IMG/VR virus record: IMGVR_UViG_2615840593_000003
Coordinates: 32,001 to 96,000 of that record
Strand: one strand, 5' to 3'
Source: a virus
Lineage: Duplodnaviria; Caudoviricetes
DNA length: 64,000 nucleotides
The notes beneath the pieces are model-generated. The model did no database searches. It saw only the letters and a list, made by a program, of their open reading frames with translations, and was not told where the DNA came from. How positions within the stretch are numbered: the first letter of the stretch is position 1; the number at the start of each line of letters is the position of its first letter. Shown here piece after piece: positions 4,560 through 63,959 of this stretch. The translations under genes were made by a program, and so were the position numbers.

Positions 4560-5543
4560 TTATTTTGCATTTAAATCTGCTGAATGTAAGAACATTAAAT
4601 CCTCATACTGTTCAACTGTCAGTAACTCACGTAATTTACGCTCCTGTTTTACACTCATATCCATAGGAGTCATGTGGAATTGAACTAAATCAACTATGTA
4701 CTTAATGAAGTTATCTTCGTATCCTAATACCGATAACCAATAGCAAGCTAACTGTGCGCTTACAAATTCATGACCAATATATGATGCATATCGTTTCTCT
4801 TCACCTTTATAATTGATAAATGATTTACACCAACCTTTACCTAAATCATGAAATAGTGAAGCGATCAACATTTCCTTTTTACGATTATCTTTATAGTTTT
4901 TCATTACAAATTCATACACATAGAAGATATGACGACTAATTGAAAATGAATGATACTTGGAGTCATGTGGTTTGTCATAAACATCTTCAAAGGAATCAAT
5001 AATTTTCATCAACTCTTCCATTAAATCTTCATGATTTGGCGACTCATCAGATAATAAGTATTCAAATCGTTCACTATAAAACTTATCCAACTTTAGCTCT
5101 GGGTGAATTAACTTAACATCATTCCACCCTTCATTAATTGTAGGAATTTGAGCAGACATATACATCTTATTCAATACTTCAAATCCAACTTTCCGTTCAC
5201 GTTGGGAATCATTATGTAAGCATTCGCCAAACAATGAGTTGAAATAATAAGCATAAAACTCGTCAGCTTTAATTTCGTTTTTAATTAAATGAATTCTACG
5301 TTTACGGTTTAAGTTTGTAGCATCGTAAATGACATCTCGACCTTCACTTAATAGATTATTAATACGAATATGTAATTCTTTGAAAATCATTTCATTTTGA
5401 GACTGAACATTTACATCTCCTAATAATTCCTCACGCAAGCTGTCTGAAGATAAGACTATTGCATTCAATAATTTAGCCATTTCTTTAGCTATTGTTGATT
5501 TACCAACAGCAGGTAGACCAATAAGAACATGAAGTTTACTCAT
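4560..5543 (-). CDS. Polynucleotide kinase (AAA_33) fused to an HD domain
   Basis: Walker A GLPAVGKST, SSDSLR, YDATN; HD motif LFHDLGK. Confidence 0.85.
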   Translation of the reverse strand: MSKLHVLIGLPAVGKSTIAKEMAKLLNAIVLSSDSLREELLGDVNVQSQNEMIFKELHIRINNLLSEGRDVIYDATNLNRKRRIHLIKNEIKADEFYAYYFNSLFGECLHNDSQRERKVGFEVLNKMYMSAQIPTINEGWNDVKLIHPELKLDKFYSERFEYLLSDESPNHEDLMEELMKIIDSFEDVYDKPHDSKYHSFSISRHIFYVYEFVMKNYKDNRKKEMLIASLFHDLGKGWCKSFINYKGEEKRYASYIGHEFVSAQLACYWLSVLGYEDNFIKYIVDLVQFHMTPMDMSVKQERKLRELLTVEQYEDLMFLHSADLNAK

Positions 5544-6348
5544 AGTTGCGACACTCCTCAATAATTTTATTCTTGATAATGTCTTGTGATAGTTTAATAA
5601 ATTTATCCTTTACTGAATAATCAATTGTACTTTCATCAATTTTGCTTAAAACATCATCCTTAAATAATTTAGCTTGTTTAGTCACTTCCTCCATTAACAA
5701 CTTGGCTTCACTTAAAATAACCTCATTCTTTTTTGTACTCAAAATTAATTCTATTGAATTTGAAGGAATTAACGATTCTTTCATTGATCTTTTATGTAAA
5801 TAGTAATCTTGCATCATTACATATAATCGGATAACGTGAGAGAGTTGCTTGCCGTCATATCCGTATTTTTCAATCTTATGAGCAATTGTTGGATAAGGAT
5901 GACACAATGCTTTTTGTTTTTCACACATCATTCCATACATGGCTCTAATCATTTGTGCTGATAACTTTTCCACTAACTCATCTTTAAGGCTAAAAATTTC
6001 ATCAAATTCCTTTTCAAAACGATTATCTACAATATAATAATCAGTAAACAAAGTTTCGATATAAGCAGGATTTGCTTTGATTAACGTTTGGAAATAACTT
6101 CGAATATCTTTTAAATCACACTGTCCCCATTCAGTCTCAATTACTGTTGAAATTGGTTTACTATTATAGATCAACTCGTCTAACGTAGGAACAATGACAG
6201 CTTTCATATCGATATCAGACTGATATTCTTCATCGTTGATGTCTAAGTTATAATTTTGAGAACCATAAATTGAAATATATGCTACTGTATAACCTTGAGA
6301 TTCAAGGACTTTCTTTTGTTTAATTAAATTTTCATATAATCTATTCAT
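5536..6348 (-). CDS. Pol-beta superfamily nucleotidyltransferase
   Basis: YGSQNY...SDIDMK motif; ANPAYIE; YDGKQLSHVIRL. Confidence 0.8.
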   Translation of the reverse strand: MNRLYENLIKQKKVLESQGYTVAYISIYGSQNYNLDINDEEYQSDIDMKAVIVPTLDELIYNSKPISTVIETEWGQCDLKDIRSYFQTLIKANPAYIETLFTDYYIVDNRFEKEFDEIFSLKDELVEKLSAQMIRAMYGMMCEKQKALCHPYPTIAHKIEKYGYDGKQLSHVIRLYVMMQDYYLHKRSMKESLIPSNSIELILSTKKNEVILSEAKLLMEEVTKQAKLFKDDVLSKIDESTIDYSVKDKFIKLSQDIIKNKIIEECRNYE

Positions 6349-6359
6349 GACAATTCTCC

Positions 6360-7277
6360 TTAGCTAAAAATTTCACGTTTAGTCATTTTGACTTTCTGAG
6401 TAATAAGATGGTTTAAAGTTTTAAAATCTATTTTAGGTTGTTTGTGCTTCTTAATGATATTCCAAGTTTCCTCTTTGATTAATTCTGAGAATACTCGACC
6501 TAATAACATAGGAATGTATTTACTAGTCCATCCTTCATTTTCATTTACAATTTTAGAGTATTCTTTTTCAATGAATGCTTCTGTACAATACTCATCTACA
6601 ATAACTTCTTCAATCATTTTTCCTGCTTTTATTTCATTGTAACCCATAGCTTTATTATGTATTTCCTTAAATTCAGTAGTAACGATCTTAGCCCATGTTT
6701 GACGTTTATATTTGTTATAGAAGTTATAGTTCTTAATTACAACTCCTTCACCTACTCCTGCTCCATCTTTAATCAAAAATTGATTCTTATCTAATGATTT
6801 CAAGAATGCCTCATAATTACCATTTACTACTTTTGCAATTGGAATGATGAAATCTAAATTGTGTTCTTCTAATAAAGGCTTATAGATGTCATATGGTATG
6901 TATTCTACGCTTTCTTCACCTTTATCAAGAGTAATATCAAACACGTAGAATTTGCGCCAAGCATCTTCTCGATAAGTTTTTAATGAATGAGGTACTAACC
7001 ATTCTCCATACAGACGATGTGTTGGATGAGCTTCTAGATAATTTTTGATATTTACATTGTTTAAAACATATTCATAAAAACCTGCATTATCTTTTTCTAA
7101 TGATAGTTCACGATTTCGACTACCTGCTTTAATATTTCCTTCGTCATCTACCCAAACACTAGCGTTAGTTCCATCTAATTTAGGGAAAATTAATACTTCT
7201 CCAAATTCAATATCTGTTACATCATCTGTTCCGTATCTTTCTAAGTGTTGGTATTTTTTAAATTGCATAATTAACAT
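6360..7277 (-). CDS. RNA ligase (Rnl2-like)
   Basis: Motif I PKLDGTN, GSRNR, LYGEW, FYVFDI, GEGVVIK, WAKIV. Confidence 0.85.
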   Translation of the reverse strand: MLIMQFKKYQHLERYGTDDVTDIEFGEVLIFPKLDGTNASVWVDDEGNIKAGSRNRELSLEKDNAGFYEYVLNNVNIKNYLEAHPTHRLYGEWLVPHSLKTYREDAWRKFYVFDITLDKGEESVEYIPYDIYKPLLEEHNLDFIIPIAKVVNGNYEAFLKSLDKNQFLIKDGAGVGEGVVIKNYNFYNKYKRQTWAKIVTTEFKEIHNKAMGYNEIKAGKMIEEVIVDEYCTEAFIEKEYSKIVNENEGWTSKYIPMLLGRVFSELIKEETWNIIKKHKQPKIDFKTLNHLITQKVKMTKREIFS

Positions 7278-11297: not shown

Positions 11298-11924
11298 CTA
11301 TGAAACAACTTTATCATTCAAATAGTGGAGTATGTAATTTCGCATATGCTTTCTAAAAACTTTCATTGTGTAATGAACCGTCTTTGGACTTACACCGATT
11401 AACGGTGCTACTTTTGTTGCAGGTATTTCTTTAATTGCTAAAGGTATAAGATATGGGTAGTATTTATCCATAATAAATCCCTTCGCATATTCAACTGCAT
11501 TATGTAAATATGTATAATCTTCTTTATGTAGTACATCTTTTTCAGACATATTTATAATATCAATTAACCTACTTCCATCACCGTCATTTACATTTTCGTC
11601 TAAATAACAGAATGACTGATCTAAGTCGTTTCTCATCTTTCTACTAGCATTATTGAGACTAACATTAACTTCATTCACCATCACGATATAACAATAAGAA
11701 GAAAATTTACACTTATTCTCTCCACTATAAGCTTTTACAGCTCTTACAAAACCTAAAACACAAGCATCTTCTATATCTTCTTTTCTGATGACAATGACAT
11801 TATTAAACTTCTTTATTACCTTATGTATAAGTCCTTTATTTCTTTTGTAAAGCACTTCAAATGCTAACTCATTATTGTCGGTTTTATATAACTCTACTAA
11901 TTCTTCATTTGTTAATTTTTCCAT
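11298..11924 (-). CDS. Phage sigma-70 family RNA polymerase sigma factor
   Basis: LTNEELV...AFEVLY; region 2 EDIEDACVLGFVRAVKAY...KFSSYCY; C-terminal HTH VAPLIGVSPKTV. Confidence 0.85.
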   Translation of the reverse strand: MEKLTNEELVELYKTDNNELAFEVLYKRNKGLIHKVIKKFNNVIVIRKEDIEDACVLGFVRAVKAYSGENKCKFSSYCYIVMVNEVNVSLNNASRKMRNDLDQSFCYLDENVNDGDGSRLIDIINMSEKDVLHKEDYTYLHNAVEYAKGFIMDKYYPYLIPLAIKEIPATKVAPLIGVSPKTVHYTMKVFRKHMRNYILHYLNDKVVS

Positions 11925-13043: not shown

Positions 13044-13610
13044 TTATTTACCTACCAATCCGAAATAATCATTTAAATAATGATATTTTCTTTTATTTTT
13101 AGTGAATTTCTTTGTTTGATCATTCTTCTTTATATGTACAATTTTATTACCTATCACACGTATTTCCATCGAACCATAATTAAATACATGTCTTCTACTG
13201 AATACTTTTGGTTTCCCTTTACCAAAATTGCTTGATAGAATAACATTTCGAGTTAACTTCTTCTTAGTATCGTCAAATGAAGTATTTTCATTCTTTAAAA
13301 ATGTATTGCAGTAGTACTGATAAGCTTCTTCGGAAATCTCAAGTGGTTTATTTAATAAACGTTCCTCAACTTTTTTCCAATATACCTTTCTTTCCTCAAG
13401 TGTTGCTCTTCGAACAACACTCTTTAGAGGCTTATACTTTGTAGTTTTATTGTAGCCTACAAAGTTAGCAAGTTGATGTTTACCTTGACTATCAACTATA
13501 AGTACATCTCCACGTTTTAGATTTTTAATGCCAGTATTAAATCCGTACACTACCCCTTTGTCTTGTCCACTTATCAAATTAAAAGTAACTTCTGCGATCA
13601 TTTTCACCAA
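13044..13610 (-). CDS. Hypothetical basic protein
   Basis: 188-aa ORF coupled to the upstream gene. Confidence 0.7.
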   Translation of the reverse strand: MVKMIAEVTFNLISGQDKGVVYGFNTGIKNLKRGDVLIVDSQGKHQLANFVGYNKTTKYKPLKSVVRRATLEERKVYWKKVEERLLNKPLEISEEAYQYYCNTFLKNENTSFDDTKKKLTRNVILSSNFGKGKPKVFSRRHVFNYGSMEIRVIGNKIVHIKKNDQTKKFTKNKRKYHYLNDYFGLVGK

Positions 13611-13804
13611 TCCCCTTCCACTATTTTATTGTTTATCGATTCAGCTTCGTTCTCGACACTGTGCCATTCATTAGATATTTGAAGATTTAATTCTCCCATT
13701 TCTTGATAACCTATTTTCATTTGCTCGATCATAGCTTGTCTTAACTTGTCATCTATTATGGAATCATTACTTATTTGCTTTATCTCTTCAAACATTAACA
13801 ACAT
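13604..13804 (-). CDS. Orphan MazE/EndoAI-like antitoxin C-terminal domain
   Basis: EQMKIGYQEMGELNLQISNEWHSVENEAE resembles the B. subtilis EndoAI toxin-binding region (recalled as DLMRRGYMEMAKINLNISSEAHFAECEAE); no RHH domain. Confidence 0.75.
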   Translation of the reverse strand: MLLMFEEIKQISNDSIIDDKLRQAMIEQMKIGYQEMGELNLQISNEWHSVENEAESINNKIVEGDW

Positions 13805-13981
13805 CTCCGTTTCATTATTATGTATTTTATTAATTAATCACCGACATTTGCTACATAACAACTATTTATTTATAATGAGAATGTTATAGTTTTCATTTAT
13901 TTGTTTTCTTTGATAAATATATCTTAATCTACCAACCAATTAATTTCAAGTATTTTTTATGTATTTTATTAATTAATTTCC

Positions 13982-14176
13982 TTATGTATTCAACTTCTCA
14001 TTATTACCTAAACTACTGATATCGATGATAATAGCTACAATGACGCCAATAACACCTATTAAATTTGTACCTATTACTGCACTAATACTATGATAGTTTA
14101 CAAAGAACCAAAACCAAGACCAGAAAAATAGGCTACAGCTTGTGATTAGGATATTTCTTACTATAAATTCTTTCAT
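13982..14176 (-). CDS. Small membrane protein
   Basis: Two hydrophobic helices. Confidence 0.6.
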   Translation of the reverse strand: MKEFIVRNILITSCSLFFWSWFWFFVNYHSISAVIGTNLIGVIGVIVAIIIDISSLGNNEKLNT

Positions 14177-14448
14177 GGCTTACTCCTTAAATTTATTACT
14201 TTCACATCTTCATCACCAATATATCTTTTCAATTCCTCTAATTCTTGTTTAAATACAAATGTCTTACCGTAAATATCAGGTACTTCAACTAATAGATATC
14301 TACTATCATCTTTCTCTAAATCATGTATACATTGATTGCACATCTGCACTCCAGAGTCTCCAAAAGCATCGGTTGTCATATCATCTGATGGATAAACATC
14401 TTTACATCTAATACATTTTTTACAGTTCCAGTTCATAATCAATATCAC
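14173..14448 (-). CDS. Hypothetical zinc-finger protein
   Basis: CxxC...CxxC motifs. Confidence 0.6.
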   Translation of the reverse strand: MILIMNWNCKKCIRCKDVYPSDDMTTDAFGDSGVQMCNQCIHDLEKDDSRYLLVEVPDIYGKTFVFKQELEELKRYIGDEDVKVINLRSKP

Positions 14449-14694: not shown

Positions 14695-15297
14695 TTAAAA
14701 CTCAACAGTGATCGATTTATCCATCAAAATTTCATAACACTTAACTACCAATCTAATTTGATAAGCAATATCATCAAAAGCATCATGCTTACGTTCGCTT
14801 TCATCTGTTACTGACTCTTTAATCTCATCTTCAGTTAATCCTGATTTCATACTTGCCAATTCTAAAATTGTACGTACATCACGATCATTCTTATAATAAA
14901 TTGGATACTTCAATCCACTGCGCCCATTGAGATTAGTCTGTAATTTTGCATTATCGAATAGGATACCATTACCCCATAAGTAAACATCCTTCATGTCTCC
15001 TGTAGTTGATTGCGCTTCTAACCACTTATGCAATGCTTCAAATAAATTATATTCTTCATATGTACCTTTATTAATCAATTCGGTAAGCAATTCTTTATCT
15101 GTATTTAACCACCATTTTAAAGTTGAGCCATCAACATTCAAGTTGCTGTACTTATCAATATCACCTATTAAATTAATAGAATCATGCTTGTCCCCTGTTT
15201 GAATGTTGAAGCTCATTGCTGAAATTTGAAATACAGTCGCATTTTCTCCAGTACCTAGTGTTTCAATATCAACCATTATATCTTTACGCATATTCAA
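14695..15297 (-). CDS. DEDDh 3'-5' exo(ribo)nuclease
   Basis: MVDIETLG, WGNGILFD, RDVRT, HDAFDD. Confidence 0.85.
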   Translation of the reverse strand: MNMRKDIMVDIETLGTGENATVFQISAMSFNIQTGDKHDSINLIGDIDKYSNLNVDGSTLKWWLNTDKELLTELINKGTYEEYNLFEALHKWLEAQSTTGDMKDVYLWGNGILFDNAKLQTNLNGRSGLKYPIYYKNDRDVRTILELASMKSGLTEDEIKESVTDESERKHDAFDDIAYQIRLVVKCYEILMDKSITVEF

Positions 15298-15981: not shown

Positions 15982-16371
15982 TTAATCTACTCGTCTTAAT
16001 TTTGTTTGCATCATTTTATGACATTCCGAATCTGCTTTTTTAATTTTATAATGTCTTCTGTATTTCCATCTTATGTTTGACTTTGTTACTTTAAGTAAAT
16101 GTGCTATGTATCGAAAATCTTCATTATTAAATTTACCATGTTTAACTCCATAGACAGTAGTTAAGGAATCTGTATATAATGTTACTCCTTTCCAACCTTT
16201 CTTTAATGCCATTTGTAAAGCCTTGACTATAGTTGTTGCTTCTGCTTTAGTTGAAGATTCATCAAATCCAATAAAAGTTCTTCTTTTAATTCTCTTGTTT
16301 CCTTTCATGACGTAGTAATGATGAGTAGATGATCCATCCTTATAACCACTATCAGTATAAATTTTAATCAT
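15982..16371 (-). CDS. RNase H-like protein
   Basis: IKIYTDSG, STKAEA, LYTDS, KKADSEC; start at MIKIY with RBS gaggt. Confidence 0.75.
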   Translation of the reverse strand: MIKIYTDSGYKDGSSTHHYYVMKGNKRIKRRTFIGFDESSTKAEATTIVKALQMALKKGWKGVTLYTDSLTTVYGVKHGKFNNEDFRYIAHLLKVTKSNIRWKYRRHYKIKKADSECHKMMQTKLRRVD

Positions 16372-16394
16372 ATGTATTACCTCTATTATGTATT

Positions 16395-16604
16395 TTATGT
16401 ATTTGCTTTCCACTTGGCTTTAGAATTATCCATAAGATTGATCATTTCATCTATCCAGTTTTGTGCAGATTGTTTATCTTTGTATGTCTTATCAAATATC
16501 CACCCATCCTCATCTCTTATTATTTTAAAACCATCTCCCCATCTATTAGGAGAAATGAACAATCCAAAATCTTCATATCGTTTTTTACTATATTTCTTAA
16601 TCAT
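16395..16604 (-). CDS. Hypothetical protein
   Basis: 69-aa ORF, RBS aggtgg. Confidence 0.65.
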   Translation of the reverse strand: MIKKYSKKRYEDFGLFISPNRWGDGFKIIRDEDGWIFDKTYKDKQSAQNWIDEMINLMDNSKAKWKANT

Positions 16605-17271: not shown

Positions 17272-17420
17272 CGTTTTTGTTCGATACTTCTTAATAATAT
17301 TTAAGTTATATTGATTTCATTATTTAAATATTATTAGCAAATACCAAATAAATTTTGTGTATTTTTTTATTTTATGTATAAAGGAAACCGAATGTCTTAC
17401 ATTCAGTCCTTTTTATATTC

Positions 17421-18395
17421 TTAGAAGTTTAATTTAAAATTTCCATACTCTTCTTCCATAAAATCTATATCGATGATCTCTTTAAATCTCATGAACGATG
17501 GATATTTTTTTCCTTTAATTTCCAAACTATATAGATCAAATTTTTCAGCTACTTTAGTTGCTATTTCTTTAGTTAGAACTCTATCGCTACCCATAAATTT
17601 ATTAGCATAATACATCACACCAGAGTTACCAATGGAAGTTGTAGTTATTTGTACGTCATCAAATGCAACCTTAACTACGTTTATAATAATGTTCTGTAAC
17701 ATTGGTATTGAAATACGTACATCGTTGCCGCCCACTCTACTTTTTCTGAATACATACTCTCCATCAACAATACGATTAGTTCTGCCATTTACACTTTTAT
17801 ATTCTTGTGTCTGATAAGTTTCAATAAGCATATCATATAGTTCTTTTGATATTTCTAACTGTCTGTTAGTCAAATCAACTTCATCACTTAGTAAAGAAGC
17901 GTAGTATTTATCTTCTCTCTCAGTTAAATCTTCTCTTCTTAAATTAATTATTTCTGAAAATTTATTTCCGCTAATACCCTCAAATAAGGCTAAAACCAAA
18001 GCTTTATCTCTTACATTGTTAATGTTTTCAAAGTACTTAAATAAATCATTTCTTGTATAATATTTAATTCCTTCTCTATACAAGTATTTAGAAACAAACT
18101 CAGTGTTTATAGTATCAATAATTGGATTAAGTGAACTCTCTCCATATCCATTATCTTTTGCCCATGTAATATAATTTTTTATAGTATTGAAGAAGTTTAC
18201 AGCAGAACGTTCTGTTTTTCTTTGTACCCAATAAAACAATTCTTCTAACATATCAAAGTCCATGTCAAATAAATCTTTACCTTTTTGAGCCTCAAATGAT
18301 TCTGTTCTTTTAAAATATAATCTATATTGATTTTTAGTTTCTTCAGCATGTTCTGAAGCTTTTAAAAAGGCTTCCTTATAATCGGCATTATACAT
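17421..18395 (-). CDS. yopR: YopR/MrpR-like master repressor (degenerate tyrosine-recombinase fold)
   Basis: MYNADYKEAFL N-terminus; RDKALVLALFEGISG lacks the catalytic Arg; third gene of the yopP-Q-R triad. Confidence 0.75.
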   Translation of the reverse strand: MYNADYKEAFLKASEHAEETKNQYRLYFKRTESFEAQKGKDLFDMDFDMLEELFYWVQRKTERSAVNFFNTIKNYITWAKDNGYGESSLNPIIDTINTEFVSKYLYREGIKYYTRNDLFKYFENINNVRDKALVLALFEGISGNKFSEIINLRREDLTEREDKYYASLLSDEVDLTNRQLEISKELYDMLIETYQTQEYKSVNGRTNRIVDGEYVFRKSRVGGNDVRISIPMLQNIIINVVKVAFDDVQITTTSIGNSGVMYYANKFMGSDRVLTKEIATKVAEKFDLYSLEIKGKKYPSFMRFKEIIDIDFMEEEYGNFKLNF

Positions 18396-18407
18396 AAATT
18401 ACTCCTC

Positions 18408-19742
18408 CTATATTAGGCTTTCGAAATATTTAACAATACTGCTTCTATCTTTTTTAGACAGCTTACCAATATTCTTATTTAATAATTTATATTCATTCCA
18501 ACGAGTATTTTCAATGTGGAACTCATTAATATCTATAATTTTTTCTAATTCATCAAACTTCATTTCTTTATCATTCATCTTCTTCATTAATGCTAAATGA
18601 CCTTCAAAAATATCAGCATCAAAAAGAACTTTATATTCGTCATTTTCGTGCTTTCCAAAAATACCGAATAAATAGACTAAATATTCATTTATTTCCTCGG
18701 CAATTTTTCTAGCCTCTAATCTACTATTGATTTTGAAAATGTTGCTTATTGCAGTATATAAAGTGTTATAAGGGATAAATTCATTACCTTTTAGAGAATG
18801 CTTAATGTCTGTACTAGTTGTAATCCTATCTTTAAGTTCACCTTTTGACTTTAAAATGCTTATTACATCGCTTGCGTAATTTTCTTCTTTCAACTCATTG
18901 GCTCTACCTTTTGTCAAAGGAGTATGCTTATTTAAGTCTAATTGATATCTCTTAATTTCCTCATCTGATTTGTTGGATATAATTACAGGAAAAGACCCTT
19001 GAATACCTTTATCTCTAATATACGCACTATAAGTGCCCAAAGTTCTATGCATACCATCAACTATGTCTAATATAGTTCCTTCTGTTATAGTTAATGTATT
19101 CTTATCATTATCATAAATTAATTCTGACTCTTCTTCAGAACTAAATTGCTTGGCATTAAAAATCACAGTGGATGGTCTTAGTTTATTCTTTAAAGTTAAA
19201 TTTCTTATTTCATTTACTTTCTTTTGTAACACAATAGGTACTTCTGTCACTAATCCATATCTTGCAACCTTACGCATACCTCTTTGTACATTTGGGTTAT
19301 AATCTAATTTACCATATCTAAAAAGTCTACCGATTTCTTGTTTTGTAAAAGATGTTAAATAATATCCATCACCCAAATCAATAACATTTTGCTTTACCAT
19401 TGGAAAATCTATTTCATCCATCGATTGAACATCTACAAATTGGTAACTTTCAAATTCTTTTTTCTCACGTTCTGTAAACCAATCATTCATCCACTCGTGT
19501 TGATCAATACCTAACTTAATAACTAGTTGTTGACCAAACAGCGCTAGCTCTTCCCCGGTTAACTTCCCTACATTATTCGAATTGTTAAATAGTGAGTAAA
19601 TACTAGTTTTTTTAATTCCATGTTTACCATTTAAATGTTCAACTATAAGTTCTACTTCTTCTTTCTTAACTGTTGAAGCAAATAGATGTATCAAACTTTT
19701 AATTTCTGTTTCTAATTGCTCTCTTGTTTTATTAATTTGCAT
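18408..19742 (-). CDS. yopQ: YopQ-like DGQHR/DndB/ParB-fold protein
   Basis: YNPNVQRG, LDIVDGMHR; position between yopP-like and yopR-like genes. Confidence 0.7.
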   Translation of the reverse strand: MQINKTREQLETEIKSLIHLFASTVKKEEVELIVEHLNGKHGIKKTSIYSLFNNSNNVGKLTGEELALFGQQLVIKLGIDQHEWMNDWFTEREKKEFESYQFVDVQSMDEIDFPMVKQNVIDLGDGYYLTSFTKQEIGRLFRYGKLDYNPNVQRGMRKVARYGLVTEVPIVLQKKVNEIRNLTLKNKLRPSTVIFNAKQFSSEEESELIYDNDKNTLTITEGTILDIVDGMHRTLGTYSAYIRDKGIQGSFPVIISNKSDEEIKRYQLDLNKHTPLTKGRANELKEENYASDVISILKSKGELKDRITTSTDIKHSLKGNEFIPYNTLYTAISNIFKINSRLEARKIAEEINEYLVYLFGIFGKHENDEYKVLFDADIFEGHLALMKKMNDKEMKFDELEKIIDINEFHIENTRWNEYKLLNKNIGKLSKKDRSSIVKYFESLI

Positions 19743-19795
19743 ATACTAACGCCCCTTTCGCACTAGAGTAATTTTACCACTTTTTCTCTGTCTTG

Positions 19796-20872
19796 TCATA
19801 GGTAATCACTCGTAGAAGCTTTATTTTTTATCTTATTATTTAGTAAAAGTAACATCTCTGGACGCATCTCTTCTAAGCATTCTAACAATAATTTATGTGA
19901 AACTGTTTTATATAATTCTTCAGAAGTGTTCATTTTGGCAGATATAATACCTGTGACATTTAGATTAGTTAATCTTAGATATCTCATAGTTGTATTAACA
20001 TTACTATGCCTTGCTTTTTTCATTGCTGAATCTATACAATTGCCATTGTTCAAATAACACATAGTTACTGCTAATTTTTTAAATGAGTGAAATGTGTAAT
20101 TAATATCTGTATGATTCCATAATTTATCGCCTCTCTCCATTATATCCACTAACTGTTTATATGTGAGAGTGAATAGCTTAGTGTTATTTCCAATAGTTTT
20201 GAGTTGTAGAAGCTCATTATACAAATCCTTACTTATTTTATCAATCCATTCCTTATTGCCTTTACCTTTGTTGTAACCATGAGATTTCATTATAACTCCA
20301 TCTTCAACTTCAGTAAAATTAGACCATTCAACTCTCAGTAGTTCACTAGCTCGTAAGCCTGTTTCAATAGCTAACTTTATTATTAATGATTTCTCAAGTC
20401 CTTGTTCATCTTTAGAAAAGTATTTTACATACTGCATAGCTAAATCAAAAGGAATCATTTCTATTTCTTCTCTTTTATCAGGTAAAGACTTAAGCAAATT
20501 TAATTTATCTAAATCATAAGTAATAATGTCCCAATTTTTTAGATACCTTATCAATTCTTTTATTACTGAGATATGTCTGTTAATAGTTGCATTCTTATAC
20601 TTAGGTTCATCATCTTTATTTAATTCATCGTATAGTCCATTGAAGTAGTCTTTTAATACAGATACATTTAAATTTTCGATATCTTCTTTTGAAATGTATC
20701 TGTATTCATTTTTTCTAATTAGCTCCTTAAATACTTTATTTAAACTGCTTCTATAGTTCACAAAACTACTTTCAGACTTCTTTTTGTATTCAATTAAAAA
20801 ATCATCTATATGATTTCCAATATAAGTAACCATTTGAACAGCATTCTGATTTGTATTAAGAGCAGCAACCAT
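19796..20872 (-). CDS. yopP: YopP-like tyrosine recombinase with most catalytic residues retained
   Basis: SAM-like N-domain (ATINRHISVIK); TGLRASEL, KGKGNKE, HSFKK (HxxK variant), ARHSNVNTTMRY. Confidence 0.85.
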   Translation of the reverse strand: MVAALNTNQNAVQMVTYIGNHIDDFLIEYKKKSESSFVNYRSSLNKVFKELIRKNEYRYISKEDIENLNVSVLKDYFNGLYDELNKDDEPKYKNATINRHISVIKELIRYLKNWDIITYDLDKLNLLKSLPDKREEIEMIPFDLAMQYVKYFSKDEQGLEKSLIIKLAIETGLRASELLRVEWSNFTEVEDGVIMKSHGYNKGKGNKEWIDKISKDLYNELLQLKTIGNNTKLFTLTYKQLVDIMERGDKLWNHTDINYTFHSFKKLAVTMCYLNNGNCIDSAMKKARHSNVNTTMRYLRLTNLNVTGIISAKMNTSEELYKTVSHKLLLECLEEMRPEMLLLLNNKIKNKASTSDYL

Positions 20873-20907
20873 AACTTACAACCACCTTTGCGATTTTCTT
20901 ATTAATA

Positions 20908-20961
20908 ATAGTATATCCATATTTTTGTTAATTGTAAAGCGAATTATGTATTTTATTATTT
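20908..20961 (-). promoter_or_regulatory. Promoter of the yopP-Q-R-like operon with adjacent AATAAAATACATAA element
   Basis: Minus strand aataaaatacataattcgc-TTTACA...TATACT. Confidence 0.6.
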
Positions 20962-47012: not shown

Positions 47013-48071
47013 TTACGCTTCTATTTTCACCTTTTGATTATAGAACTCATCTAAATGTTTTTTGATCGATTCTAAGCGTCCTAATACATTTACCTTCTTT
47101 ATTCCCCACGATCCGGCAAACTCTTTGTAATTAGTAGGTATCTCATCTGATTCTCCTTGTATTGTACTGGAGAATAATGTTAACCAGTCAATAAGATACT
47201 GTTTATCATAAGCACTATCTTCAAAATGCTTCATAACATGTATTAACGTTGGTAGATTGATTTTTCTCAATAGGAACTTATCTGTTTCCTCTCCATAAGC
47301 ATCCTGTAAAAGTGTCATTGCTTTTTCTACAGTTTCAAAAATCCCTTCATTCATTCCTTCATGTAGCTTCTCAGAGTACTTTGTTAATTCATCGCTAGCG
47401 AATGATTTTAATTCATAGTCTTCATCAAATAACATAAGAGTCTGTAACAAAACTGCTTGATCTTCACCTTTTCGTAATTGTGTTGGAGTAAAGTGTGCGT
47501 TCTTGATCATAAATGGATGCTCAGATAGTCTATTTAATCTAATAGAAGCACTTATACCCATAACAGCTTTATTCTTCTGATGCACACTTAGGTAAACCCC
47601 ATTATTCAAACGATAGAATAATTCTACTTTTTCTTCCTCAGTAATGTCGCTTAAATAATACATATTTAATGTTTTAGTTTGAAATTCTAGCCTCACTGGT
47701 TCTGGTAATTCTTCAAATTTAGTTTTACTAATGTTGTAATACGTATCATCTATATTTACTGGTGGAGTATCTGGATGTAAAGCATAATCCCCTTTATAAT
47801 ACGACACCAAGTTCGTTATTCTTTGCTTACCATCAATTACTTCATAAGTGTTCGCTGTTTTATTATCTTTTGTTTCTACTTCCGCAGATGTAACTACTGG
47901 AGGAATAAAGTAATCGACTATTAATGATTGCACTAGTAATGATTTCTGCTTTAAACTCCATTGTTCATCTGCTCTTTGAATTGGAAAATCAAAATTCAAT
48001 CTTTCATCCGTGATTAGTTTATCAAATTTACTAACTGACATAGGCATACTTGCTTTTATCATTTTCTTCAC
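47013..48071 (-). CDS. DUF262 (ParB/GmrS-like) protein
   Basis: FPIQR...WSLKQKSLLVQSL...YEVIDGKQRIT...LFYRLNNG. Confidence 0.85.
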   Translation of the reverse strand: MKKMIKASMPMSVSKFDKLITDERLNFDFPIQRADEQWSLKQKSLLVQSLIVDYFIPPVVTSAEVETKDNKTANTYEVIDGKQRITNLVSYYKGDYALHPDTPPVNIDDTYYNISKTKFEELPEPVRLEFQTKTLNMYYLSDITEEEKVELFYRLNNGVYLSVHQKNKAVMGISASIRLNRLSEHPFMIKNAHFTPTQLRKGEDQAVLLQTLMLFDEDYELKSFASDELTKYSEKLHEGMNEGIFETVEKAMTLLQDAYGEETDKFLLRKINLPTLIHVMKHFEDSAYDKQYLIDWLTLFSSTIQGESDEIPTNYKEFAGSWGIKKVNVLGRLESIKKHLDEFYNQKVKIEA

Positions 48072-59460: not shown

Positions 59461-61209
59461 ATGAATGTAAATCTATGGTTTGCAAGAGATAATCATGGTG
59501 AGATTGCAACAATTTTGAATTCAAATATTGAAAATACATATACATGTCCTATTTGTAATAGCGAAGTAATTCCAAAAGCATTACAGTCAAAACAAATCAC
59601 TCCGCACTTCGCACATATTGATAGAAATAAATGTACAGGCGAATCATTTGTACACTTTTGGATGAAGCATGGATTTATTGAACGTGGAGATACCTTTACG
59701 ATCATTTCAGATGATAAGCACACTTTCACATGCAAGGATTTTAAAACTGAGGTTACTTTTAACTTAGAATCCGGAGTGTATCGTCCTGATATTCTAGTAG
59801 AAACTGAATGTGGTAATGAAATTGTTTTTGAAATGGCTAATACTAATAAGAAGCAAGTTAAAGATTATATTGATCGTTGGATCGAGTTAGATAAGATTAT
59901 TGTTGAAGTAGATGTTCCTACTTTGACTGGTCAAAATGAAGTAAAAGAATTTAAAGCCTTGTACTATAAAGGTAAATGTTTCAACTTTAATAAACGTGAT
60001 GGTGGTTATTACAATACAATAGGTAAGTTGAAAGAGGAAATGATTAGAAGTAACAAGTACGATATTGAAAAGGTTAAGAAGTTGGACTGGTTTTGGGACA
60101 CTGTAATAGATTATCGAACAGGAAAATTAAATATCATTGATTTAACAACTTGTATCGATGAAATACTATCTAATGATACTGAATCTGAATTAAGAGAGCT
60201 TTCTAGAGAATTTCTAATAAGTAAAAAGTGTTCTAATATATTCACTGACTACCTTAAATATAAAGCTTCAAAAATAAAAGAAGAAGTTATGAATGGCGTA
60301 GTTATCCCTGGGTATATGAGAGATTTTATAGAAGTGACTGAAAATGCTTATTTTAATAAGTATAATCAAAGCTATTCAGTGGCAGTAAAAGATAACTACA
60401 ATTTCTTTAATGAAACATTTTATAAATATGAGGTGAATTCTGCTAGAGAAAAACTAATAAAAGCCATTGATTCAAATATAGATAATCCTGAAATATTGTT
60501 ATATAGAAAAATACAAATAAATAAAGATTTGATTCAAAATGCTATTGAACAAGCTAAAATTGAAATAAACAATGATAAGGTAGAATTAAGTTTAAGTGAA
60601 TCATTATCTAAATTTAATCTAAACAGAATTATTATGAAATACAAAGGTTGTTATATACAACAGTATATAGAGATTACAGAAGATGTAGCTGAAAGCAGTG
60701 ATTTAAATTATATAGTTAGTTTTATTATTAACCAATTCAAAAAGTATGAATGTTTATTAAAGGATAGTAATGATTATGAATATATTGAAAAAATTCTGAG
60801 TTTGAATTTTAGAGTAAGTGATAGTTATATTGTATCCAATAAGATAACTCCTAATCTATTCAATATACACAGTATTAATTCTAAGGCACGTATAGATCTA
60901 TTAATTTATGATGGAAATGTGTACCTAGATAAGAAACCAAATGAATACTCTTATAGTAATTTTGAAAAACAATTAAGTAGAATGGATTTACATAATCCGA
61001 TAATTCGTAAAGTTGAATGTGAGAACCTAACGGATAAAATAAAGAGTTACATAGAATATAAATTGCACCACTTCAAAATGTGTAAGGACTGTTATATGGA
61101 GTTTGAAATATGTGAAAGTGAAATGGATTTCTTTAATAAGAACGGACTTCAATTACCGAAGAGATGTAAGTCATGTCGCAATAAACGTAAACTAGGAGGA
61201 GTAAAATGA
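59461..61209 (+). CDS. CoiA-like PD-(D/E)xK nuclease with N- and C-terminal zinc ribbons
   Basis: YTCPIC...PHFAH...GESFVH...YRPDILV...IVFEM; C-terminal CKDC...LPKRCKSCR. Confidence 0.75.
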   Translation: MNVNLWFARDNHGEIATILNSNIENTYTCPICNSEVIPKALQSKQITPHFAHIDRNKCTGESFVHFWMKHGFIERGDTFTIISDDKHTFTCKDFKTEVTFNLESGVYRPDILVETECGNEIVFEMANTNKKQVKDYIDRWIELDKIIVEVDVPTLTGQNEVKEFKALYYKGKCFNFNKRDGGYYNTIGKLKEEMIRSNKYDIEKVKKLDWFWDTVIDYRTGKLNIIDLTTCIDEILSNDTESELRELSREFLISKKCSNIFTDYLKYKASKIKEEVMNGVVIPGYMRDFIEVTENAYFNKYNQSYSVAVKDNYNFFNETFYKYEVNSAREKLIKAIDSNIDNPEILLYRKIQINKDLIQNAIEQAKIEINNDKVELSLSESLSKFNLNRIIMKYKGCYIQQYIEITEDVAESSDLNYIVSFIINQFKKYECLLKDSNDYEYIEKILSLNFRVSDSYIVSNKITPNLFNIHSINSKARIDLLIYDGNVYLDKKPNEYSYSNFEKQLSRMDLHNPIIRKVECENLTDKIKSYIEYKLHHFKMCKDCYMEFEICESEMDFFNKNGLQLPKRCKSCRNKRKLGGVK

Positions 61210-63959
61210 TTAAACTGCAACAATATTATGTTTTCAAACTAACTACCTCTAGACTTGCAGAATTTGATTATGATATTAAAGATTTAACTGTCTCCCATGC
61301 TAGATTAAATGGAGAGCTAGTACAGATCGGTGATAACCAAGTGTTTAGGATGATTCGCAAGATAAAAAATACTAAAACAGAATTTGAATCATTAAATTTA
61401 GCAATCAATGAGCGTAACGATCTTAAGAAGTTAGATTCAAATGATGAAAACTCTATAAAAATAGCACAGAAACAAAAAAACATAGATGACATCTTATTTG
61501 TTCCAGACATTATCAATATTAAAGTTGATGATAAAAAAGTTTATAAAAAGATATTCAAAGAAGGATTCACTGTAAATGGTATCACTTTTAAACGTTTTTG
61601 TAGTGGTGCAGGACAATCGAGACAATCTGTAGCGTCATTCTGTAATATTGACATTATAGAAGAATTAACAAGACGCTTGAATTGTGGATTAAGCATTAAA
61701 GAAATTAACGTTGCAAAGTATAATGCTTACTTCGGGTTATATATGTCTGCTACATACCCTGTTCGAACTCCCAATGTATGCGTCATTCCTGATTATGAGG
61801 ACGAAGAGTTAGTTAAAAAGGTTGATTGGATTGATGATGTAGAAATTGACGGTAAAGATAAGCGTATTGTGTATGAGAAAGATGATTTTATATTTAAGCC
61901 TAATATGTGGGATGGACAAGGATTGGTTTCCCCTACTTTTGCAGAAAAATGGCAAGAGGATTTAAAACTTGAATATCTCCCTTCTCAATTTGTAGTTCGT
62001 AGTAGCTTCGTTAAAGGTGCGTTAGCTGTTTTCGATTTTCATAAGTTTGCACAGGAAGAAGCTAAAACAAATAAAATTAAAGATATTTATGGAGATGAGT
62101 GGGATATTGATGATATAGATGTAATACTCTCTGCCTCTCAGTTCAAAATGAATAAATTTTACTCGTCATGGGAGCAGTTTTTACAACTTCAAGAACATCA
62201 TGGTTTAACTTGGGGAGTTACTAAGGTCAATCCTAAAGCAGATAATGAAGTTAGTTTGCTGAATTACCAATACATGCAATCATTAAATCTAGATAAAGAA
62301 AAAATTCAACAGCTTATCTCCCCTACTGTTGATTGGATTGAAAAGATTTGCCGAGGAGATAAACTTTACACTTTGTTATTCTTACTAGGATCGTCTAATA
62401 AAACAGATACAATTGAAGCCATTTTTAATAAAACAAATAATAACTATGTAAAAGCTATCTTATATAATGACAAATTACTGAATGATCCTTTTATAAAGAA
62501 GAAAATTTATGACAATATCTCAACGAAAATCGATGAAGCTAAGATTGGTCGCATTTGGGTGAATGGGAACTATCAATTCATGATTAGTGACCCTTATGCA
62601 CAAGCTCAATTTGCATTTGGAATGAAAGTTACTGGTCTACTGAATGAATTTGAACATTATTCACATTTCTGGAACGAACTCGAAGTTAATAAAGTAGATG
62701 CCTTGCGTAGCCCATTAGTTGATTTCCATGAGCATAATATGTTGAATCTAGTTGACAATGAAAAAGTAAATGAATGGTTTAAATATCAACCATCAGGAAT
62801 AATTTATAATGTGTGGGGTGTTGACACAATACGTCACTCGGATTCTGATTATGATGGGGATATCGTTTTTACTACAAATAACGAAATTGTGATGGATAAT
62901 ATTGTACCGAATTTAAATGTCATTACTTATGATAAAGCAAGTGCAAAACCACAAAGATTAAATCCGACTAATATTCTGGCAACAGATTTACGTAGCTTTA
63001 ACTCAAAGATAGGTACAATCACTAACTACTCTACTACTTTTATCTCTATGCTTGCTAATTTTAAAGAGAATTCAGATGAATATAAAGAAATACTGAATCG
63101 CATTAAATTGCTACGTCGTTATATTGGTGATTCAATAGATCAAGCAAAAGGAATTAAAACTAAGCCATTCCCTACTGAATGGAAAAAACGTAAATTCGTT
63201 GATAAGGATGATAGCGATGAGGTTAAGCAACAAAAATATTATCACAACAGATTGGTTGCTAATAAGAAACCTTACTTTATGATCTATATTTATGAAAAAT
63301 TAAGAACTGAATATAGAGAACATCGGAGTAAAACTGATCGCACATGTAAAGAGAAATTTGGTTGTAATCTACATCAGCTAATGAACAAGCAAGATAAAAC
63401 CAAAGATGAATCATATTATCTATATAGTTACTATCGTGACATGCCTGTGATTAAGAATGATTCTGTGATGAATATGCTGTGCAAAATGATCGAAGAAATT
63501 GACTTCAATTATAAACGAGTTAAAAATGATGAAAATGTAAATGAAATATTTGATATTCTTTATGATTACGAAATTGGTATTGATGAAGAAAGATTGGAAA
63601 AATTAATTAAATTACGTTCAAAATTCAATAATAAGCGCAACTTCAAATTCAAATCTAATGCTATTGAGAACGTTTCAGAAAATAATTCAGATGAATTAAT
63701 TAATGAATTTTATAATGAAATACGTACTGAAGCATATGAAATTTGCTCAAATATGAAAGAACTAGCAAATCATTTAATTTACATAACTTATAAGCTATAC
63801 CCTAAAGACTCTAAAAATTTCGCATGGCATATTGCAACTGAAGGCATTTTAGAAATACTTGAATCCAAATCAGACATGAATATCGAATTACCAATGAAAG
63901 ATAAAGAAGGAGTTGAGTATTTAGGTAATAGATATTCGTTAAGGAGTGTTGTTGTTTGA
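61206..63959 (+). CDS. yonO: YonO-like single-subunit DNA-dependent RNA polymerase
   Basis: 917 aa; WDGQGLVS, VKGAL, LRSPL, catalytic DSDYDGD, IDQAKG, KKPYFM. Confidence 0.9.
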   Translation: MIKLQQYYVFKLTTSRLAEFDYDIKDLTVSHARLNGELVQIGDNQVFRMIRKIKNTKTEFESLNLAINERNDLKKLDSNDENSIKIAQKQKNIDDILFVPDIINIKVDDKKVYKKIFKEGFTVNGITFKRFCSGAGQSRQSVASFCNIDIIEELTRRLNCGLSIKEINVAKYNAYFGLYMSATYPVRTPNVCVIPDYEDEELVKKVDWIDDVEIDGKDKRIVYEKDDFIFKPNMWDGQGLVSPTFAEKWQEDLKLEYLPSQFVVRSSFVKGALAVFDFHKFAQEEAKTNKIKDIYGDEWDIDDIDVILSASQFKMNKFYSSWEQFLQLQEHHGLTWGVTKVNPKADNEVSLLNYQYMQSLNLDKEKIQQLISPTVDWIEKICRGDKLYTLLFLLGSSNKTDTIEAIFNKTNNNYVKAILYNDKLLNDPFIKKKIYDNISTKIDEAKIGRIWVNGNYQFMISDPYAQAQFAFGMKVTGLLNEFEHYSHFWNELEVNKVDALRSPLVDFHEHNMLNLVDNEKVNEWFKYQPSGIIYNVWGVDTIRHSDSDYDGDIVFTTNNEIVMDNIVPNLNVITYDKASAKPQRLNPTNILATDLRSFNSKIGTITNYSTTFISMLANFKENSDEYKEILNRIKLLRRYIGDSIDQAKGIKTKPFPTEWKKRKFVDKDDSDEVKQQKYYHNRLVANKKPYFMIYIYEKLRTEYREHRSKTDRTCKEKFGCNLHQLMNKQDKTKDESYYLYSYYRDMPVIKNDSVMNMLCKMIEEIDFNYKRVKNDENVNEIFDILYDYEIGIDEERLEKLIKLRSKFNNKRNFKFKSNAIENVSENNSDELINEFYNEIRTEAYEICSNMKELANHLIYITYKLYPKDSKNFAWHIATEGILEILESKSDMNIELPMKDKEGVEYLGNRYSLRSVVV

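Follow-up and report, generated by a model that had tools for sequence, protein, structure and literature searches.

A minimal MazE-tail protein of a distant SPbeta-like phage as a probable inhibitor of host MazF

Results and Discussion

An orphan MazE-like segment predicted to inhibit host MazF

We analyzed a 64,000-nucleotide (nt) window of viral DNA (bases 32001–96000 of the 154,764-bp IMG/VR 'provirus' record IMGVR_UViG_2615840593_000003; CheckV completeness, 88%) and, within it, a small early-region gene on the − strand (13604..13795). The sequence evidence supports reading its product, hereafter the mimic, as a stand-alone MazF-binding C-terminal segment of the antitoxin MazE (EndoAI in Bacillus subtilis), without a DNA-binding or dimerisation domain. 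The mimic is probably an orphan inhibitor of host MazF during lytic growth, of the type represented by the phage proteins AimX and YosL. Both of these proteins bind MazF (PMC10769878), and the statement of an earlier note on this DNA that they block it is confirmed in two sources (PMC10769878; 10.1101/2023.04.27.537455). Indeed, experiments with phi3T AimX and with SPbeta and phi3T YosL are reported to show that MazF is neutralised and the lytic cycle proceeds (PMC10769878; 10.1101/2023.04.27.537455). For the mimic, we infer binding to MazF, expression timing and the effect on lysis.

A single-sequence phmmer search against all PDB chains aligned query residues 21–64 with residues 50–93 of the 94 residues of EndoAI (4ME7_E; E 3.8e-4) and also retrieved the 52-amino acid (aa) AimX (8ANV_C, 'arbitrium putative lysogeny regulator'; E 5.6e-3). 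Searching 177,635 PDB sequences with a profile of 29 family members returned the C-terminal MazF-binding segment of B. subtilis EndoAI/MazE (4ME7_E; E 2.6e-8) and phi3T AimX (8ANV_C; E 1.2e-7) as the only significant matches, the next one having an E of 0.46. This is the significant profile match to EndoAI that the earlier note had set as a check on its proposal, and it covers the toxin-binding C-terminal helix to which that note had likened the protein. Precomputed annotation assigns PF27083.1 (MazE_antitoxin_C of Pfam 38.1, named from the Atlas listing) to the window's own protein and to 45/45 homologues, a membership that the 4ME7_E profile match supports independently. Only ~22 residues precede the homologous segment, and the mimic has no ribbon-helix-helix (RHH) or AbrB-type Pfam match at E ≤ 1, as expected from the earlier description of a protein lacking a DNA-binding domain. 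The AlphaFold2 (AF2) model of the monomer is one long helix (residues 12–59; mean predicted local distance difference test score, pLDDT, 87.6), which is compatible with a MazE tail but not diagnostic of it.

The mimic is also related to YosL. It matches phrog_21769 (E 3.2e-10), which can be identified as the YosL family because SPbeta YosL matches it over positions 1–115 (E 4.1e-61). The match of the mimic is restricted to positions 60–111 of 115, in the C-terminal half, and does not extend to the N-terminal domain of full-length YosL. A tblastn search with the mimic likewise retrieved yosL in SPbeta (E 8e-5), phi3T and relatives.

Residues with known roles in partner binding are conserved in the mimic. 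The helices of AimX and of MazE each sit in a groove at the dimer interface of their partner (PMC10769878). The AimX residues that contact the protein phi3T_93 (M14, Y18, E20 and M21) are reported to have identical counterparts in MazE that contact MazF, and YosL has them as well (PMC10769878). Their equivalents in the mimic, read from the phmmer PDB alignment and numbered in the 63-aa form of the protein, are M26, Y30, E32 and M33. Conservation of these MazE_antitoxin_C contact residues extends to the 29-sequence family, with M26, Y30 and M33 each found in 29/29 sequences and E32 in 25/29 (Q in 4/29); the family alignment has seven invariant columns, contact residues included. Single substitutions in AimX (Y18A) and YosL (Y82A) abolish MazF neutralisation, and the C-terminal domain of YosL alone blocks MazF toxicity without the toxicity of the full-length protein (both as reported in 10.1101/2023.04.27.537455). 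By its sequence, the mimic appears to be, in effect, a natural version of this domain.

The earlier note had described a 66-aa open reading frame (ORF), which is present at 13604..13804 (− strand; MLLMFEEIKQISNDSIIDDKLRQAMIEQMKIGYQEMGELNLQISNEWHSVENEAESINNKIVEGDW) together with the strings that the note quoted. The upstream ATG at 13804 gives this 66-aa form and a second ATG at 13795 (M4) gives 63 aa. A GGAG ribosome-binding site (RBS; 13805..13808, − strand), read from the sequence and invariant in an alignment of three phages, directly adjoins the first ATG and is followed by the second at a distance of 9 nt. Furthermore, most of the 45 homologues (E ≤ 0.01, out of 46 candidates) have 62–63 aa. 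Based on the GGAG spacing and homologue lengths, the real product is probably the 63-aa protein encoded, stop included, at 13604..13795 (− strand), a feature that combines the ORF with the homologue lengths, the PDB profile matches and the YosL family match. Nucleotide differences from two related prophages are biased toward third codon positions (19/29, 16/28 and 19/33).

The phage carries no mazF and its probable host does

Judged by its gene content, the record is that of a distant SPbeta-like temperate phage: 34 of its ORFs match SPbeta in tblastn searches, including YopP/YopQ/YopR, the YorI–YorL replication genes, the terminase, the portal and tail genes. All of the source-named homologues of the mimic (9/9) are from Lysinibacillus, and syntenic prophage segments with mimic copies that are 81–86% identical are present in two Lysinibacillus genomes. 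These two observations point to Lysinibacillus as the host.

The claim that the window contains no mazF holds over the entire record, as a search with PF02452 (PemK_toxin) found nothing at E ≤ 1 in the 154,764 bp; the same search had matches in 5/14 control genomes. The record has only one MazE-like segment, and the adjacency to mazF that is typical of canonical MazE is absent, the neighbours being unrelated. By contrast with the record, each of the four related Lysinibacillus genomes (4/4) has one chromosomal mazEF. The family profile detects exactly two places in 4/4 of these genomes, the prophage gene and the chromosomal MazE (E ~1e-8), and the latter is directly upstream of the single mazF in 4/4. 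The host MazF is, in turn, a full-length match to B. subtilis EndoA (4ME7_A; E 3e-58).

Predicted MazF cut sites are enriched in lytic genes and absent from the repressor operon

The MazF enzymes of B. subtilis, Listeria and S. aureus are reported to have the strict cut site U^ACAUA in common and to leave TACAT(C/G/T) uncleaved (bioRxiv 10.64898/2026.08.06.743204). The corresponding DNA hexamer, TACATA, is contained in sense orientation in a repeated element of the phage, AATAAAATACATAA. The window has 24 matches to this element with ≤1 mismatch (e.g., at 1411, 2873, 13818, 13957, 20944, 26140, 49879, 54198 and 58943), compared to 0.67 expected, and 0/100 shuffles reach 24. There are 39 copies in the whole 155-kb record, with the consensus ttAAtTAATAAAATACATAAaa. 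A shorter form (consensus AAATACATAA) is the commonest intergenic motif of the phage. The motif is found in two arrangements, the full element just upstream of sigma-A-like −35/−10 sequences and the short form 0–12 nt before a Shine-Dalgarno (SD)-like sequence.

Long ORFs of the record are on the − strand in the first ~81.5 kb and on the + strand thereafter. Sense TACATA occurs 146 times in the early block, compared to 45.9 ± 6.9 in dinucleotide shuffles (rank 1 of 1,600 testable hexamers), and 82 times in the late block, compared to 38.2 ± 5.8 (rank 16 of 1,449), with antisense counts at or below expectation in both. Intergenic DNA (18.3 kb) has 96 sense and 15 antisense copies, with sense counts of 12, 7 and 4 for the uncleavable variants TACATT, TACATG and TACATC, respectively; an SD-like sequence starts ≤12 nt downstream in 38/96 of the intergenic sense sites. 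Long genes (96 genes of ≥150 aa, first 120 nt trimmed) contain 77 sense copies, compared to 49.1 ± 5.0 after synonymous-codon shuffling (60 shuffles, maximum 62), and their counts of TACATT, TACATG, TACATC and the antisense hexamer are within ~1.4 standard deviations of the shuffles. In the two related Lysinibacillus prophage segments that were long and similar enough for the motif to be judged, there are 30 sense and 2 antisense copies in one locus (L011) and 36 and 3 in the other (L012).

The lysogeny module encoding homologues of YopP (19796–20872), YopQ (18408–19742) and the master repressor MrpR/YopR (17421–18395), identified by tblastn to SPbeta on the − strand (17421..20872), is devoid of sense TACATA (0 in 3,452 nt; mean, 6.2). 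The longest site-free interval of the early block (3,572 nt, 17373–20945; median gap, 333) is exactly this module, and only 0.3% of windows of the same size have zero sites. The second-longest site-free stretch of the block is the gene of a 673-aa recombinase (genome 1574–4626), outside the window. The coding sequence (CDS) of the mimic also has no sense TACATA. In SPbeta, the longest site-free gap (3,605 nt) spans part of yopP, yopQ and yopR, and the ORFs of phi3T and SPbeta have already been reported to be enriched in MazF sites (10.1101/2023.04.27.537455). Thus, the site enrichment and the repressor gap suggest that this phage has the same architecture as SPbeta. The intergenic DNA of SPbeta has 20 sense and 19 antisense copies of TACATA, and the leader placement is not seen there. 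What is new with respect to SPbeta is, on this comparison, the presence of the cut hexamer inside an intergenic motif ahead of ribosome-binding sites.

The repeated element of SPbeta, read from its sequence as ...acaaa(t/a)aATATGTATAta, is reported as the binding site of MrpR (SPBRE; PMC10516654). SPBRE and the element described here share the core TATGTAT, in opposite orientation relative to genes. By analogy, the MrpR homologue may use the element as its operator. From sequence alone, a role at the DNA level (operator or promoter) cannot be told apart from one at the RNA level (MazF site), and the motif could have both.

Together, these features are consistent with a mechanism in which the mimic would be made once the MrpR-type repressor is lifted, or upon infection. 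Its conserved helix (M26..GY30.E32M33) would then insert in the groove at the dimer interface of the host chromosomal MazF. With this UACAUA-specific RNase blocked, the site-rich lytic transcripts of the phage would be spared from cutting and the lytic cycle would proceed.

Weighing the evidence and alternative functions

Several points weigh against this reading. The homologous core has only ~35–45 residues. The sole NCBIfam model matched, staphylococcal MazE (NF041459; E 1.5e-5, positions 8–45 of 54), scores 25 bits against an equivalog cut-off of 108, far too low for a family call, and a copy of Pfam without PF27083 yields chance-level matches alone (mRNA_cap_C, DUF1319). Such sub-threshold family scores are expected because the match is partial. 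In addition, the host of the record is deduced from genes that are 81–89% identical in Lysinibacillus genomes, and the cut-site specificity of Lysinibacillus MazF is extrapolated from the B. subtilis, Listeria and S. aureus enzymes. AimX is also reported to use the same helix for its second partner, phi3T_93 (PMC10769878), and the helix alone does not prove that MazF is the only or the main target.

One alternative function is, in our view, unlikely, although more plausible than the others discussed here: the MazE-like helix could mainly bind another partner (a lysogeny factor like phi3T_93/YopN or a host protein), with MazF inhibition secondary or absent. The dual binding of AimX to MazF and phi3T_93 with one helix provides a precedent (PMC10769878). 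Furthermore, the 22 N-terminal residues of the family include nearly invariant E4, D11, K17 and A21, which have no counterpart in MazE and therefore hint at an extra function. However, the closest relative, YosL, is reported to bind MazF and not phi3T_93 (PMC10769878), and a query with SPbeta YopN, run without a positive control, had no match at E ≤ 10 in the record. The way in which MazF cut sites are distributed over the genome also argues that MazF matters to this phage.

A further alternative is that the mimic is an antitoxin whose toxin is encoded by the phage itself, in the gene that follows it. This gene (13044–13601, − strand), coding for a 185-aa protein, starts 3 nt after the stop of the mimic, a tight operon-like spacing, and the protein shares the 11 residues NLKRGDVLIVD with the N-terminus of MazF. 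Yet hhalign gives this similarity a probability of only 8.9% over 11 columns, and the 185-aa protein has no match in Pfam, the PDB or the phage database. The gene is also absent downstream of the mimic in 4/4 related loci, all of which keep the mimic; only this phage has it in our comparison of loci. We rejected the 185-aa protein as a MazF-like toxin, and the weak similarity, the absence from 4/4 loci and the lack of MazF or a PemK domain in the record make a phage-borne pair very improbable. The C-terminal half of the 185-aa protein matches phrog_15690 (E 1.4e-11), whose function is not assigned.

Least probable of all is that the gene, which is very short, is decaying or not expressed and resembles MazE by chance or as a relic, given the 45 homologues of conserved length, the invariant columns that include contact residues, the third-codon-position bias, the conserved RBS and upstream region, and the profile E-values of 1e-7 to 1e-8 to EndoAI and AimX.

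Origin and spread of the mimic family

The proposal in the earlier note that the gene is a captured antitoxin fragment stands in the deep sense of a MazE-derived tail but not as a recent capture from the present host. The best pairwise match of the mimic is YosL (43.5 bits, 38% identity over 45 aa, ungapped), ahead of Lysinibacillus MazE (31.2 bits, 34%, gapped). A quick maximum-likelihood tree (154 core segments, 38 columns) places the chromosomal-type MazEs, including the four host MazEs, on one side of a branch (Shimodaira-Hasegawa-like approximate likelihood ratio test, SH-aLRT, 95) and the mimic family outside. The mimic, YosL and AimX also have the ENEAE signature in common, and 12/14 chromosomal-type sequences have EYEA. 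The closeness to YosL, the position in the tree and the ENEAE signature all argue against a recent pick-up from this host. The backbone of the tree is largely unresolved (95/149 inner branches open), and it does not decide whether the mimic family is closer to YosL or to the other short forms.

A profile search of 1.84 billion representatives identified 152 relatives at E ≤ 1e-3. Among the 149 examined, 78 have ≤76 aa, 44 have 77–104 aa and 27 have ≥105 aa; stand-alone tails are therefore common. We found no description of this Lysinibacillus mimic among the matches listed in searches of the literature on SPbeta-like prophages and MazF, and the word 'Lysinibacillus' occurs 0 times in the preprint 10.1101/2023.04.27.537455.

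Upstream region of the mimic gene

Two copies of the repeated element precede the mimic, both on the strand of the gene. The proximal copy (AATAAAATACATAA; 13818..13831, − strand) has its TACATA at 13819–13824, in sense orientation and 10 nt before the RBS. The distal copy (13957..13970, − strand), which is 100% conserved in L011, is just upstream of the −35-like hexamer of a weak sigma-70-like promoter candidate (TTGAAA-17 nt-TAAGAT; 13921..13949, − strand) with 9/12 matches. Sigma-70-like matches in this region are no more frequent than expected by chance (7 found, 14.8 expected). The earlier note was correct in placing the gene behind copies of the element; that the element itself acts as a promoter is no more than a possibility.

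Between the promoter candidate and the proximal element is a conserved untranslated leader (13832..13920, − strand), with 92–95% identity among three phages versus 83–85% for the CDS. The stretch running from the distal element to the RBS (175 nt) is 84–100% identical by segment in the three phages and is better kept than the CDS. We also observed in the leader an 8-codon mini-ORF that lacks a clear RBS (MKTITFSL; MKVITFSL and MKVITFSF in relatives). An Rfam search of 13300–14300 found nothing at E ≤ 1, and the fold of the leader RNA is no better than that of shuffles (z-score −0.51).

Gene context

In the direction of transcription, the lysogeny module precedes the mimic by 3.6 kb, and its MrpR homologue has the Pfam domain MrpR_N_CB (E 1.3e-16). 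The linkage between repressor and mimic is kept in 4/4 related Lysinibacillus loci, at a distance as short as 1.2 kb in L013 and L014. These two loci (L013, 2466–6132; L014, 2371–6126) have YopQ-like and MrpR-like genes, a 154-aa gene and a diverged mimic of 59–61 aa beside host NfeD-like and flotillin-like genes, and may represent the edge or a remnant of a prophage in which repressor and mimic have been retained. Genes directly upstream of the mimic are small ORFs of no assigned function. Two nucleases are encoded between repressor and mimic on the − strand (14695–15297 and 15982–16413), an exonuclease (phrog_255, E 4.7e-46) and an RNase H-like protein (RVT_3/RNase_H).

Downstream of the mimic, at 1.7 kb, is a sigma-factor-like gene (11298–11924, − strand; Sigma70_r2, E 1.5e-5; PHROG sigma factor, E 1e-13). 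Its product could direct transcription from a promoter specific to the phage, for which the repeated element is a possible candidate. Genes for an RNA ligase (PF09414, E 1.8e-18) and a P-loop kinase/HD phosphohydrolase protein (AAA_33, E 6.7e-16; HD, E 7.8e-6) have the transcription direction of the mimic (6360–7277 and 4560–5561, − strand). RNA-repair enzymes of this sort act on RNA ends with 2',3'-cyclic phosphate and 5'-OH groups, such as those left by MazF, which they heal and seal; linking this RNA-repair-like pair to MazF is speculation.

The window has genes of the SPbeta type, among them those of a YonO-like RNA polymerase and of the YopP/YopQ/MrpR homologues. The first of these is a 917-aa ORF (61206–63959, + strand) homologous to the single-chain RNA polymerase YonO, with 36% identity to a protein of Bacillus phage BUCT082 (E 1e-159). 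It is preceded by the gene of a 582-aa protein (59461–61209, + strand) with CoiA_N and treble-clef zinc-finger domains. A megablast search of a phage collection with 3 kb of the window had no match. A 352-aa protein (47013–48071, − strand) has the GmrSD_N domain (DUF262-type restriction endonuclease N-terminal; E 8.4e-15) and is a possible phage-borne defence or exclusion gene; its CDS has zero sense TACATA.

A query with SPbeta AimR had no match in the record, a search that had no positive control and that concerns divergent proteins and a record that is 88% complete. YopM, which occupies the aimX position in SPbeta, was rejected as a member of the YosL family, as it does not match the family and belongs to phrog_23684.

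Comparison with known MazF inhibitors and antitoxins

The mimic is of a kind already known from AimX, YosL and the Pfam family MazE_antitoxin_C; what is new is a minimal, tail-only form in an SPbeta-like phage of Lysinibacillus. Like YosL of SPbeta and phi3T, it is a phage-borne orphan with a C-terminal segment homologous to the MazF-binding part of MazE, has the ENEAE signature and is encoded by a CDS without sense TACATA. Production of YosL is reported to be confined to the lytic cycle, and the protein is reported to bind MazF and neutralise it (PMC10769878; PMC10516654; 10.1101/2023.04.27.537455). YosL differs from the mimic in having 117 aa, with an unrelated N-terminal domain of ~60–70 aa that is toxic when overexpressed (10.1101/2023.04.27.537455). 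The host genus and the genomic position are also different: yosL is just upstream of nrdI-nrdE-nrdF, whereas the mimic is between the repressor module and the sigma-factor-like gene, with the single ORF that matches SPbeta nrdE ~34 kb away.

AimX of phi3T (8ANV chain C, 52 aa), which is reported to inhibit MazF and promote lysis (PMC10769878), is a short peptide consisting essentially of the MazE-like segment alone, as is the mimic. In contrast, aimX directly follows aimR-aimP under AimR antitermination and the mimic has its own promoter-like region. The mimic shares with chromosomal MazE/EndoAI the segment M..GY.EM..(I/L)NL.I..E....E.EA, yet lacks the N-terminal part, matching residues 50–93 of 94, and has no adjoining mazF. 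MazE proteins have 100–130 residues, and similarity is confined to the C-terminal region (PMC10769878). Among orphan antitoxin-like phage genes, those that counter DarTG1 are similar in that they lack a toxin and neutralise a host toxin-antitoxin defence, but they concern unrelated toxin families and biochemistry (PMC11825919). A further likeness is to staphylococcal MazE (NF041459), a naturally short MazE-type antitoxin of which the mimic, scoring far below the cut-off, is not a member. Staphylococcal MazE is a cognate antitoxin encoded beside mazF.

Implications for SPbeta-like phages

If the mimic inhibits MazF as proposed, the AimX/YosL strategy would extend from B. subtilis phages to SPbeta-like prophages of Lysinibacillus, in a minimal form equivalent to the C-terminal domain of YosL and in a phage in which no arbitrium receptor was detected by sequence. 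The MazF architecture, in which lytic genes are rich in sites and both the repressor operon and the mimic gene are free of them, seems to be shared between hosts. The cut site within the intergenic motif, its enrichment in lytic genes beyond codon usage and its absence from the repressor operon and the recombinase gene lead us to a more tentative idea, which we hold as a possibility rather than an expectation: the mimic could be the release valve of an arbitrium-free, MazF-gated lysis-lysogeny switch that is written into the phage genome. If so, the activity of host MazF would report on the physiology of the host and would selectively erase lytic mRNAs at their translation starts, sparing the repressor message, unless the mimic is made. 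This provides a testable model for temperate phages that may use a host RNase as a decision device.

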